DNA of 11,506 nucleotides from a virus (Duplodnaviria; Heunggongvirae; Uroviricota; Caudoviricetes). The DNA is taken from positions 1 to 11,506 of IMG/VR virus record IMGVR_UViG_3300008107_010192, one strand, 5' to 3'. Within the stretch, counting starts at the first letter, position 1. Each line of letters starts with the position of its first letter. A model generated the notes under the pieces. It did no database searches, was not told the origin of the DNA, and saw only the letters and a program-made list of their open reading frames with translations. A program made the position numbers and the translations under genes. Positions 1,136 to 8,047 of this stretch are shown here, piece by piece.

Positions 1136-1149
1136 GAATATATAAGTTA
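1136..1149 (+). promoter_or_regulatory. RATATATA-type phage promoter or leader motif, copy 1 of an exact 14-nt repeat
   Basis: GAATATATAAGTTA at 1136-1149 is identical to 3579-3592. Both lie immediately upstream of start codons. Confidence 0.55.
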
Positions 1150-1403
1150 TGAGACATCTAAAGATATACGAAAGCTTCGAACCCACATATGATACAAATT
1201 ATAATCCAAAAGATTATAAAATTTTAAATCCTGGGCAAATTGCACATTATCGTCAGGTTTTTAGATTAAGACCCGCTAGGGAGGTCGACTATGTCTGGAA
1301 AGTTCTAGATACGATAGAAAAAAATAATGGTAGAGCATCTCTTAAACAATGGAACGTCATTCAAAGAACTTACAGTGGAGGAAATTATCCAGTTAATTAC
1401 TAA
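1149..1403 (+). CDS. Hypothetical protein with an N-terminal capsid-targeting-like leader (MRHLKIYESFE)
   Basis: 84-aa ORF. The leader is shared with four other ORFs in the window, and the TAATG stop/start overlap couples it to the next gene. Confidence 0.7.
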   Translation: MRHLKIYESFEPTYDTNYNPKDYKILNPGQIAHYRQVFRLRPAREVDYVWKVLDTIEKNNGRASLKQWNVIQRTYSGGNYPVNY

Positions 1404-2044
1404 TGAGACACCTTTTTGAATATATGGAATTTGATGAACTTAGTTCTAAAGCTAAAACATCAGCTCTGGATAACGTAAGGAATGAAAAGTACTCTGGTAG
1501 ATATGGGGGTGACGATGTTGCTTCTTGGGTAATCGATGATGATTCACTTTTTGAGCCACCTCATGAAGAAATGGAAAAACTTTTCGGAGATGATTATTAC
1601 GAGGATAATGGGAATAGGTTCATGATCCAAAATCTAAGAAAGGACATCTATTTTATAGGGAAGCAAGATCCTAATTACTATTTACACTGTGAAAACGCAA
1701 TTGACATCAGTAATGATAATCTTTTTCTTAGATGGTTAGAAATACCTGCAGCATTCCGTCCTCATATTTACTATATGTTCAAAAGTTCCGGTAAAAGTAA
1801 TACCACTATAGTATTTGAAATAGAGGATTTAGACTCTATGATTGCTGAATACGGAGAAGAATCCGAGGATCTTCTAACCAATTACTGCAATAGAGCCGAA
1901 AGAAAGTTTAGTGACCACATGGATCGGGTTTTAACCCGTATTTCTAATGATATAGATGCTCAGTTCGAGGATGGTGGCATCATCGACACTATAGAAATCA
2001 ACGATATTAAATTCGAAGAAGACGGGTCAATAGCGGAGGATTAA
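1403..2044 (+). CDS. Acidic hypothetical phage protein with leader MRHLFEYMEFDE
   Basis: 213-aa ORF whose ATG overlaps the upstream TAA. FDELSSKAKTSAL resembles the FDELSdeAKekA motif I recall from uncharacterised phage and plasmid proteins. Confidence 0.72.
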   Translation: MRHLFEYMEFDELSSKAKTSALDNVRNEKYSGRYGGDDVASWVIDDDSLFEPPHEEMEKLFGDDYYEDNGNRFMIQNLRKDIYFIGKQDPNYYLHCENAIDISNDNLFLRWLEIPAAFRPHIYYMFKSSGKSNTTIVFEIEDLDSMIAEYGEESEDLLTNYCNRAERKFSDHMDRVLTRISNDIDAQFEDGGIIDTIEINDIKFEEDGSIAED

Positions 2045-2058
2045 TCTGCATTTCTTTT

Positions 2059-2082
2059 CATGGAGAAATTATTTTAAATTTG
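2059..2082 (+). promoter_or_regulatory. Putative Bacteroidota-type housekeeping promoter (-7 box TAAATTTG at 2075-2082)
   Basis: Matches the TAnnTTTG consensus in an intergenic position. CATGGAGAAATTATTTTAAATTTG aligns with CATGCGAAATTTTATTACATTTG at 5301-5323. No clear -33 TTTG box is present. Confidence 0.5.
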
Positions 2083-2101
2083 TCAGTATAAAAGGCAAAT
2101 A

Positions 2102-2875
2102 GTGATTCAATTGGTATCTCCTAAAAAATTTAACCCTTTAAAAATAGTATCCGACGGAAAATATTCTGTGGTTTCAAAAAAGCATTACAAGGACAAAATT
2201 AATGTTAACGAATATGCAATAGAATGTATAGATCATGCCTATCAATTATGCTGGGGATCTGGATACCTAAAATCAAACAAAAGAGACAAATCAACCAAAT
2301 TCAAGAATGCACTCAAAGGAAAATTGGGGGAATTTGCCCTTTATAAGCATTTGTTGTCTCTCGGTCACGAAGTTAAATATCCGGATCTTACTGTTCTTGG
2401 AAAGGGTAAATGGGACGACGGTGATCTTTTTATCATCACTAAAGACTCAGAAGGTAATGACGTAACCAAAAAGTTATCAGTAAAGACCACGTATCATTTT
2501 TCAGATCTTTTACTTTTAAATAAGGATGAATGGGATATGGAAGGTGGATATATTTACACAGAGAAAGGAATTCCAGATTATACATACAAAGCTTTTTTTC
2601 TCTGCAGAATGAGACAAAACCTAGACAATCTTTTGAACATAAGCGGAGATGAAGATCCTGGGATCGATAAAATTTATAAATCCTTAGATGGTGTTCGATT
2701 TAGTATGGACATAGCTGGGTATATTACCATAGATGATTTTAAAAGAATAATTCAAGATGGAATGTTTTTTAATGTCGGAGATTATGTAGGCAAAAAGAAA
2801 TGGGAAGAAAGCTTTTATTACTGTCAATCTGGGGATTTGAGGGACATCAACGACATTAAAAAGAAAAGAAGCTAA
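2102..2875 (+). CDS. Putative PD-(D/E)XK-fold (restriction endonuclease-like) nuclease
   Basis: GTG start. The motif order ALKGKLGEFA...YPD...WDDGDLFI...LSVKT fits the E...(P)D...(D/E/S)xK catalytic arrangement of the restriction-endonuclease fold. Confidence 0.6.
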   Translation: MIQLVSPKKFNPLKIVSDGKYSVVSKKHYKDKINVNEYAIECIDHAYQLCWGSGYLKSNKRDKSTKFKNALKGKLGEFALYKHLLSLGHEVKYPDLTVLGKGKWDDGDLFIITKDSEGNDVTKKLSVKTTYHFSDLLLLNKDEWDMEGGYIYTEKGIPDYTYKAFFLCRMRQNLDNLLNISGDEDPGIDKIYKSLDGVRFSMDIAGYITIDDFKRIIQDGMFFNVGDYVGKKKWEESFYYCQSGDLRDINDIKKKRS

Positions 2876-2878
2876 AAG

Positions 2879-3577
2879 ATGATTGATGTAATTATATTGA
2901 GTTATGCTTATAATGATGAGCTTTATTTTTATACCGATCGATGTATAAAATCCATTCTGGATTCCGAATCAAATTCAAGTGATCTTTTTAATATTATAGT
3001 TTTAGAATCGCAGAAAGATGTTTCGTGGGATCACCTTCCAAATACTAAAACTTATGATCCTCCTAAACCATATGGATACCACAAGTTTATGAATTATGGA
3101 AGAAAACTAGGAACTTCCGAATATGTTTGTCTTTGTAATAATGATTTGTATTTTACTAAGGGATGGGCTTCTGAAATATTAAACGTTGCTCAACACGATC
3201 CGGATATTCTTTCGTTCTCTCCGATATGTACTATGACCCAGCCGAAATACGGAATAAATCCGCATACAGGAAATTTGATCGGATACGAGATAAGGAAACA
3301 TATTTCGGGATGGTGTATTTTTCAAAAGAGAGAAATATACGAATCTATAGGAGATCTTGACGAAAGGTTTACCCATTGGTTTTCTGATAATGATTATTCT
3401 CTAACATTATATTTTAAAAAAATTAAACACTGCTTGGTTACTTCTTCCGTTGTAATACATCATGATAAGGACATCGGAAAAACTGGACCCTATGTTTTAT
3501 CTGACCCTGAAATGTATGACATGACAAGCGGAAGTCATCAAATATTTCTAGAAAAGTGGGGTTCTAAGATTTCCTAG
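2879..3577 (+). CDS. Glycosyltransferase family 2 (GT-A fold)
   Basis: IDVIILSY start, IIVLES, GYHKFMNYG, EYVCLCNNDL (DxD-equivalent), SGWCIFQKRE, IGDLDERF..WFSDND (catalytic-base region) and VIHH. Confidence 0.9.
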   Translation: MIDVIILSYAYNDELYFYTDRCIKSILDSESNSSDLFNIIVLESQKDVSWDHLPNTKTYDPPKPYGYHKFMNYGRKLGTSEYVCLCNNDLYFTKGWASEILNVAQHDPDILSFSPICTMTQPKYGINPHTGNLIGYEIRKHISGWCIFQKREIYESIGDLDERFTHWFSDNDYSLTLYFKKIKHCLVTSSVVIHHDKDIGKTGPYVLSDPEMYDMTSGSHQIFLEKWGSKIS

Positions 3578-7364: not shown

Positions 7365-7367
7365 TTT

Positions 7368-7394
7368 AAAGGGATCTTCTGATCCCTTTTCTTT
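7368..7394 (+). terminator. Intrinsic terminator downstream of the Ro60 gene
   Basis: AAAGGGATC-TTCT-GATCCCTTT is a perfect 9-bp stem followed by TCTTT, starting 3 nt after the stop codon. Confidence 0.85.
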
Positions 7395-7442
7395 GATATA
7401 TAATAAAACTCCTGAATATCCTTCAGGTAAGAAAAATATATA
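7395..7442 (+). promoter_or_regulatory. Two RATATATA motifs (7395-7402, 7435-7442) flanking a small hairpin (7411-7427)
   Basis: GATATATA and AATATATA lie upstream of the ATG at 7448, with CCTGAA-TATCC-TTCAGG between them. Confidence 0.5.
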
Positions 7443-7447
7443 CCAAT

Positions 7448-7696
7448 ATGGAAATTAAAAGGTTCAAAGCATTTTTGAATGAAATGAAAAAGGGTTACGG
7501 TCAAGATTATTCCCTGGAAGATGTTACAAAGGGAGAAATCGTTGCTTACAGAGGCACAAGATATTTTGTGATAGATTCTAACGAATACATGCTAGAACTT
7601 TCCAAAGATAAAGATGCCGTTCCAGGAGACAGAAAAAACCTGCTCGCAAACAAAAGTATGTTTAGAGAATATGGAGCCATTCCAGATCAAAATTGA
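7448..7696 (+). CDS. Hypothetical protein with a capsid-targeting-like leader (MEIKRFKAFLNE)
   Basis: 82-aa ORF with the shared leader and an upstream motif. Confidence 0.72.
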   Translation: MEIKRFKAFLNEMKKGYGQDYSLEDVTKGEIVAYRGTRYFVIDSNEYMLELSKDKDAVPGDRKNLLANKSMFREYGAIPDQN

Positions 7697-7706
7697 TATA
7701 TAAATA
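7695..7706 (+). promoter_or_regulatory. GATATATAAATA: RATATATA motif overlapping a perfect T4 late-promoter box (TATAAATA at 7699-7706)
   Basis: Direct sequence match, intergenic, 11 nt upstream of the ATG at 7718. Confidence 0.55.
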
Positions 7707-7717
7707 AAAATAAGACG

Positions 7718-8047
7718 ATGAGACATTTAAAATATTTTAGACCCCTAAACGAAGAAATGGGCCAAGACGAAGTCATTTATGCGGATTCTTGGACCCCAAC
7801 CCAACATCCAGAAGGTGATTATGATGTTAAGTGGACATCAGAGGTAGGGGAAGAAAAACAAGCAGTATTTTCCGACGTTGGGGGTCCAATTATGGACGAC
7901 GGGGAATCCGGATATTCAGTTTTTGAAACAATTCCGGGAACATCCTCAGATGGAAACGAATATTTAGGTGAGGTGGTTTATAAAGAACTTGGCGGAGATG
8001 GATCACATGAATTCCAGATAGTTTCTATCATGATCAAAAACAAGTAA
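7718..8047 (+). CDS. Acidic hypothetical protein with a capsid-targeting-like leader (MRHLKYFRPLNE)
   Basis: 109-aa ORF, strongly acidic after the leader. Confidence 0.72.
   Translation: MRHLKYFRPLNEEMGQDEVIYADSWTPTQHPEGDYDVKWTSEVGEEKQAVFSDVGGPIMDDGESGYSVFETIPGTSSDGNEYLGEVVYKELGGDGSHEFQIVSIMIKNK

Follow-up and report, generated by a model that had tools for sequence, protein, structure and literature searches.

The window analysed here is a stretch of 11,506 nucleotides that forms the first 11.5 kb of a 75.5-kb phage contig from IMG/VR (record IMGVR_UViG_3300008107_010192, G000 below). Five of its genes code for proteins that begin with similar leaders of 11-13 residues and are unrelated beyond them. 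Internal proteins of bacteriophage T4 carry a capsid-targeting sequence (CTS) of about 10 amino acids, which is removed by the protease gp21 after (I/L)-x-E. A preliminary description of the window had compared the leaders with this sequence and read them as a portable tag that loads diverse proteins into the phage head for delivery at infection. The present analysis concerns this N-terminal tag, its distribution and its probable function. All five open reading frames (ORFs) were found on the plus strand, with N-termini exactly as they had been described. The ORFs and the promoter-like boxes that accompany them are as follows.

1137..1144, + strand: GATATATA-type promoter-like box, 5 nt upstream of the ATG at 1149
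1149..1403, + strand: 84-aa ORF with leader MRHLKIYESFE; cargo without family match
1403..2044, + strand: 213-aa ORF with leader MRHLFEYMEFDE, overlapping at its start with the 1149 stop codon (TAATG)
3580..3587, + strand: GATATATA-type box, 8 nt upstream of the ATG at 3595
3595..4263, + strand: 222-aa ORF with leader MKKMKRYKNFLNE, of the form Y-x-x-F-L-x-E (compare Y-x-x-F-I-x-E in T4)
7435..7442, + strand: GATATATA-type box, 6 nt upstream of the ATG at 7448, with another copy at 7395-7402
7448..7696, + strand: 82-aa ORF with leader MEIKRFKAFLNE; the orthologue in the related contig G003 has MKIIKTYENY
7695..7702, + strand: GATATATA-type box, 16 nt upstream of the ATG at 7718
7718..8047, + strand: 109-aa ORF with leader MRHLKYFRPLNE; key leader residues are invariant in homologues

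The contig, with a GC content of 0.35, is rated 23% complete, from which a genome of about 330 kb is expected. Two sibling assemblies of the same phage (G001 and G002, 99.9% identity) add 60.6 kb upstream of G000, and the three together give a 136-kb composite that covers about 40% of the expected genome. Relatives were found in IMG/VR as well: G008 (343.5 kb, rated complete, GC 0.35) has 32 ORFs in common with the window phage, G003 (206 kb) has 17, and the contig G006, the third relative, is syntenic with G003. Megablast of the window against GenBank phages gave zero matches. The clade consists of uncultured aquatic phages of giant size, about 200-460 kb, whose hosts are probably Bacteroidota.

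An N-terminal tag on unrelated proteins

An aromatic residue (F or Y) is present at position 6 or 7 in five of the five window leaders and is followed at +3 by F in four of them and by L in the 7718 protein (MRHLKYFRPLNE). Three leaders contain LNE; the other two have IYE or SFE, and LFE or FDE, and endings VNE, VSE and INE are found on other tagged genes of the same phage. Two flavours can be distinguished: MRHLKIYE exemplifies I/L-aromatic-E, and YKNFLNE exemplifies aromatic-x-x-F-[ILV]-x-E. Their relationship follows from the family of a tagged CHAP-domain protein encoded by the same phage, in which both flavours are seen as parts of a single consensus, MKRIKLFESFIKE. Nearly all of 120 homologues of this protein begin with M-K/R-R-I-K-x-F-x-x-F-[ILV]-x-E, and some leaders of the family read FIAEA, FLAEA or FINEA. 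The full consensus of the tag is M-K/R-x-I/L-K-x-F/Y-x-x-F-[ILV]-x-E, accompanied by shorter forms such as MRHLKIYE and MKHIKLFE.

A scan of N-termini revealed at least 13 more tagged genes on the phage besides the five, among them genes with the leaders MEIITRFLDFVNE, MRKIQSFSQFVSE (the CHAP-domain protein), MKHIKLFENW, MKHLKQFTRFINE and MRHLTIYESF. When the first 15 residues were trimmed, no pair among these 18 leader-bearing proteins fell below a BLASTP E of 0.26, and in the untrimmed proteins the similarities were limited to residues 1-13. Searches of Pfam and PHROGs with the five tagged window proteins gave only a weak C-terminal match of the 1403 protein to phrog_5162; an ESM Atlas search with the 3595 protein gave scores below 0.9, which are leads only. 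Sequences of the sibling assemblies identify ORF 4987..5277 as a sixth window gene with a leader.

The position of the motif was assessed with a regular expression written from the five window leaders alone. In a six-frame translation of the 75.5-kb contig it has 7 matches, all of them at ORF starts. On the composite it matches 9 of 234 N-terminal methionines and 0 of 626 internal ones (p = 7e-6), and the corresponding counts are 9/342 and 0/1121 in G003 and 5/520 and 0/1843 in G008. A held-out test beyond the window gave 4/215 N-terminal and 1/676 internal matches (p = 0.013). By the counts from the composite, G003 and G008, the motif is almost confined to the starts of ORFs.

Conservation of the tag was followed in three protein families. 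In an alignment of 56 members of the CHAP family, residues F7, F10 and E13 are invariant, as are the catalytic C67 and H136, yet the overall identity in this family is only 50-60%; in the model of the CHAP protein, residues 1-12 have a pLDDT below 50. Homologues of the 7718 protein keep M1, L4, K5, F7 and E12 invariant, and in one of them more than 30 extra residues separate the leader from the domain. In homologues of the 1403 protein M1 and F10 are invariant and E6 nearly so, and three of them possess a longer leader, MKxxKKF(T/S)LFE(E/N)E, ahead of the domain. The model of the 1403 protein itself (pLDDT 91.7) drops below 50 at residues 1-4 and has no assigned secondary structure before residue 8. 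Its cargo is a predicted alpha/beta domain, conserved in about 30 metagenomic sequences. The best structural Z was 3.6 in a Foldseek search against the PDB combined with a wide VIA-align search, and a profile search against PDB sequences returned spurious hits only; the domain is confidently predicted and without a known fold among PDB structures.

Judged from these counts, alignments and models, the tag is a strongly selected, short linear motif outside the folded cargo, specific to N-termini and conserved at the protein level. Signal peptides of the Sec, Tat or lipoprotein type were considered and rejected, as the leaders are only 11-13 residues long, charged and devoid of a hydrophobic stretch, for which a core of 10 or more residues is needed. 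True signal peptides on the same contig, for example that of ORF 8095, look unlike the leaders.

The claim that the tag is portable was borne out in two ways. Firstly, among orthologues the flavours are swapped (MEIKRFKAFLNE versus MKIIKTYENY; MRKIQSFSQFVSE versus MKHILFFENF), gained or lost; in one orthologue pair the leader is present in relatives and missing in the window phage. Secondly, the tag appears as an N-terminal addition to known enzyme domains. In relatives it is located ahead of adenylate kinase (ADK), RimK-type ATP-grasp, OmpA-like and PG_binding_1 domains. On the tagged adenylate kinases of G006 (92127-92783, MKNILDFSSFLFE) and G008 (142976-143605, MESKIKAFNEFLNE) it forms an N-terminal extension of about 25 residues, and the ADK domain begins at residue 27. 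A locus search with a 401-aa tagged protein found zero relatives.

Arrays of leader-bearing genes were observed in another IMG/VR contig, G004 (193,754 bp, GC 0.29). There, the N-terminus MKHLKLYEQ(F/Y)DFEDLSDEELFG, which consists of the leader and an acidic motif, is common to over 20 small genes arranged in tandem, for example at 37701-38721 and 186677-188392, and the tag family is thereby strikingly expanded. The same contig contains 137 promoter boxes.

The promoter-like box and neighbouring features

The GATATATA-type box that precedes tagged genes corresponds to the octamer [AG]ATATATA. On the composite it is present 5-50 nt upstream of 11 of the 12 strictly defined tagged genes, compared with 12 of the 222 others (p = 7e-12), and the association between box and tag recurs in G003, G006 and G008. 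No separate box belongs to the 1403 gene; its start overlaps the stop codon of gene 1149, which is boxed. In G006, G008 and LR756500 the box is located ahead of the operon for prohead protease and scaffold, described below, and ahead of large tail genes; it is not located ahead of the replication genes of G006. This gene content suggests, by analogy with TATAAATA of T4, that the box (GATATATA[AG]) is likely the late promoter of the clade. The box marks a promoter class and is not part of the tag itself, since the untagged window gene 9019..9570 is boxed too. As far as sequence comparison and structure models reach, the tag is portable between unrelated cargos, structurally independent and linked to the promoter box. 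A box of this type also precedes the gene for a 1043-aa collagen-repeat, tail-fibre-like protein (G000 57690-60821).

Further features of the window are the following.

4830..5277, + strand: thioredoxin gene and the next ORF (4987..5277), hit by a 165-bp deletion with the breakpoint at about 5026
5325-5332: GATATATA-type box upstream of Y-RNA-like elements (5345-5641)
5724..7364: TROVE/Ro60-like gene, downstream of the Y-RNA-like elements
8993..9570, + strand: GATATATA-type box (8993-9000) and untagged 183-aa gene (9019..9570) with a weak match to phrog_5084

The 165-bp stretch is present in the siblings G001 and G002 and missing from the window assembly, where the thioredoxin is cut to 75 aa from 99. 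The same deletion took the start and the leader of ORF 4987..5277, which begins with MSIKKYREFINE in both siblings and with MKHIKLFEEH in its G008 orthologue. It may reflect genuine variation in the population or an error of the assembly.

Two regions of the assemblies deserve mention. The 3' end of G000 (75260-75506) falls within a gene with (Gly-Glu)n repeats, which probably broke the assembly, and an exact 40-mer from this end, used for extension, gave zero hits. At the other side, positions 1-22000 of G002 (38-60 kb upstream of the window) contain short ORFs only and have a GC content of 0.40-0.45, compared with 0.33-0.35 elsewhere in the phage. A chimeric join might explain this, as might DNA that is non-coding, degenerate or read with a different code.

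Probable capsid targeting and its alternatives

A gp21-like protease was sought as the enzyme that might remove the tag, and it was found in relatives. In G006 and G008 a prohead protease (Peptidase_S77/phrog_207) is fused to the scaffold and encoded directly upstream of the major capsid gene, and several tag-like genes flank this head module; a gp21-type protease is also present in G007 and in about ten other contigs of the clade. The scaffold of G006 and G008 contains 11-12 tandem repeats of 14 residues of the form NLDKNISYSEYIAE (YSEY[ILV]AE). The scaffold repeat, the tag and the T4 CTS share the motif aromatic-x-x-aromatic-aliphatic-x-Glu. About 40 further contigs encode the fused protease-scaffold with 10-16 such motifs each, in contrast to 0-2 in ordinary T4-like proteases of 200 residues, and the cultured Flavobacterium phage MaF61 possesses a protease-scaffold of 1404 residues that is rich in LNE and LFES. 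Nearest in GenBank are the published assemblies LR756500-504 of huge phages and the Lak phages. The 194-kb contig G004, rated 92% complete, tag-rich and with no detectable protease, was tried as a counter-example and set aside. It has no detectable capsid gene either, so that its head module lies off the contig and G004 neither supports nor refutes capsid targeting.

The T4 capsid targeting sequence was reportedly the subject of work by Mullaney and Black in 1996. In the T4 record, the internal proteins IPII and IPIII begin with MKTYQEFIAE. Mutational work on the CTS of IPIII assigned targeting to residues 4 and 7 (Y4, F7) and processing to residues 8 and 10 (I8, E10) (PMC9026906), and reviews list the CTS on IPI, IPII, IPIII and Alt (PMC9026906, PMC3012670). 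The resemblance that had been proposed for the window leaders extends to these four mapped positions, with an aromatic residue, a second aromatic residue at +3, an aliphatic one at +4 and Glu at +6; the window leaders YKNFLNE and FKAFLNE fit this pattern, and so do FIAEA, FLAEA and FINEA of the CHAP family.

Our proposal, which we consider probable, is that in this distant megaphage clade the leader imitates the scaffold repeat and serves, as in T4, for capsid targeting and subsequent cleavage. Tagged genes would be transcribed late, from the GATATATA-type promoter common to head and tail genes. The two aromatic residues would then dock the tag on the scaffolding core, with its 14-residue repeats containing Y-x-x-Y-[ILV]-A-E, and the docked cargo would be enclosed while the shell forms. 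A gp21-type prohead protease would cut after the terminal [LIV]-x-E of the tag, as in the scaffold, and the mature proteins would remain in the head and exit with the DNA at infection. Scaffold binding, packaging, cleavage and ejection are steps that we infer. More tentatively, the tag and the 14-residue scaffold repeat may constitute one module, in which the cargo mimics the repeat to join the prohead core and the fused protease frees it. The five window proteins are, from their sequences, candidates for packaged proteins, and the effector role suggested for them earlier is putative.

Several points weigh against capsid targeting. Two of the window leaders, MRHLKIYESFE and MRHLFEYMEFDE, lack the aliphatic-x-E spacing and fit the I/L-aromatic-E reading only, and the tag of the 1403 protein is only about 7 residues ahead of the folded domain. 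Tagged enzymes of housekeeping type in relatives (adenylate kinase, ATP-grasp) have no obvious rationale for injection, and a loose pattern puts the tag on about 9-24% of genes in relatives, which would present a large capsid load. Several tagged cargos (CHAP, OmpA-like and PG_binding_1) bind or cut peptidoglycan and have no signal peptide, which is consistent with delivery from the virion; these proteins could equally be endolysins or lysis enzymes. The box is found also ahead of tRNA and ncRNA genes (G000 48326, 50361 and 70209; the Y-RNA-like elements), which makes it a general promoter class of the phage and not a tag-specific one. Finally, protease (PF03420, phrog_207), scaffold and capsid (phrog_138) were not found on the 136 kb of G000, G001 and G002, about 40% of the genome, and the link of the window phage to the protease-scaffold therefore runs through its relatives. 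Of the original proposal, the resemblance to the CTS and the portability have held, joined by the protease in relatives and a box like that of head genes; the phage's own protease is the part that was not found on the composite.

The main alternative is a sorting or docking peptide with a target other than the capsid, such as an intracellular assembly site to which late proteins are recruited, the membrane, a multi-enzyme complex or a phage chaperone. The tag would act as a short amphipathic helix, with no need for cleavage. A linear motif that is conserved but unstructured would suit this role, and tags on metabolic enzymes (adenylate kinase, ATP-grasp ligase) and, in one relative, on as much as a quarter of the genes are easier to reconcile with an intracellular function than with capsid cargo. 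Such a peptide would, however, leave three observations unexplained: the agreement with the T4 CTS at each of its four mapped positions, the identical motif repeated in the scaffold, and the Glu at the end of the tag, which presumed protease sites of the scaffold and capsid proteins have as well. No candidate receptor is known for it, and we regard it as unlikely.

Two other explanations are far less probable. The tag could be the recognition sequence of a nearby modifying enzyme (radical SAM, 2OG oxygenase, SET methyltransferase or ATP-grasp), on the model of peptide maturation guided by a leader, as many tailoring genes, radical-SAM and oxygenase genes among them, form an array on the same contig. 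The tagged genes are nevertheless scattered and not placed beside this array, and G003, G009 and the complete G008 have no N_Twi_rSAM gene, yet G003 and G008 carry dozens of tagged genes; recognition by such an enzyme is therefore very improbable. An equally poor case can be made for a nucleic-acid feature, either a translation initiation element or "downstream box" of short-leader late mRNAs, or a recombination linker that shuffles cassettes. The box only 5-50 nt upstream of the start, the AT-rich codons and one pair of leaders with 82% DNA identity over 47 nt, upstream region included, could be taken in its favour. Against it, the use of synonymous codons in the leaders equals the genome average, with Leu spread over CTA, CTT and TTA, which points to the peptide, rather than the DNA, as the target of selection. 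Exchanges of R/K, I/L and F/Y moreover preserve chemistry, and the motif is missing from other late genes with a box, such as ORF 9019 and those for protease and tail proteins. Chance, or a single paralogous family with C-terminal parts diverged beyond recognition, is hardly credible: short motifs in an AT-rich genome with common K, I, F, N and Y codons invite such a suspicion, which is countered by the strong N-terminal enrichment over internal methionine controls, by the distinct Pfam domains of the cargos and by tag residues that stay invariant in families of low overall identity.

If the tag is a packaging signal, proteins that giant phages carry in their heads and inject could be listed from sequence. 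The T4 head proteins that are injected include anti-defence factors. The T4 solution, with the same four key positions, would then be old and widespread, and its cargo would be far larger than in T4. Should tag and scaffold repeat represent one module, it would be a key to the packaged and ejected proteome of uncultured megaphages, amounting to tens of proteins per genome, cell-wall and metabolic enzymes such as adenylate kinase among them, and would offer a ready packaging tag for engineering of these phages. The five window proteins, the tagged CHAP peptidoglycan hydrolase and the tagged enzymes of relatives are candidates for study. Even with a different role, the tag would remain a previously undescribed sorting motif that is under strong selection and occurs on about 10% of genes in these phages.

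Comparison with known packaging systems

Within a searchable library of literature, no paper was found that connects capsid targeting sequences with Bacteroidota or megaphage genomes, and the collections searched contained no cultured close relative with virion proteomics. In phiKZ, 201phi2-1 and SPN3US, N-terminal propeptides with an inferred function in prohead targeting have been described on head and ejection proteins (PMC5694885). These phages resemble the window clade in being giant phages with a gp21-related protease, which cuts after Glu there and presumably also in the window clade, and in possessing paralogues with conserved N-termini. In contrast, their propeptides mostly comprise 80-130 residues with an A/S/G-x-E site and contain no single short shared tag, whereas the tag of the window phage is short and uniform and ends with [LIV]-x-E.

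The CTS of T4 and the window tag agree in several respects. Each is 10-13 residues long and stands at the N-terminus of proteins that are otherwise unrelated; the clade has a gp21-type protease, and the set of cargos varies among related phages. The window tag exceeds the CTS by 2-3 residues, begins with a basic M-K/R-H/R-I/L-K, and is present on at least 18 genes here and on dozens in relatives, compared with a handful in T4. It belongs to a distant clade, where the cargos include recognisable enzymes and peptidoglycan-binding domains, and where protease and scaffold are fused into one protein whose scaffold part repeats the tag-like motif about 12 times.

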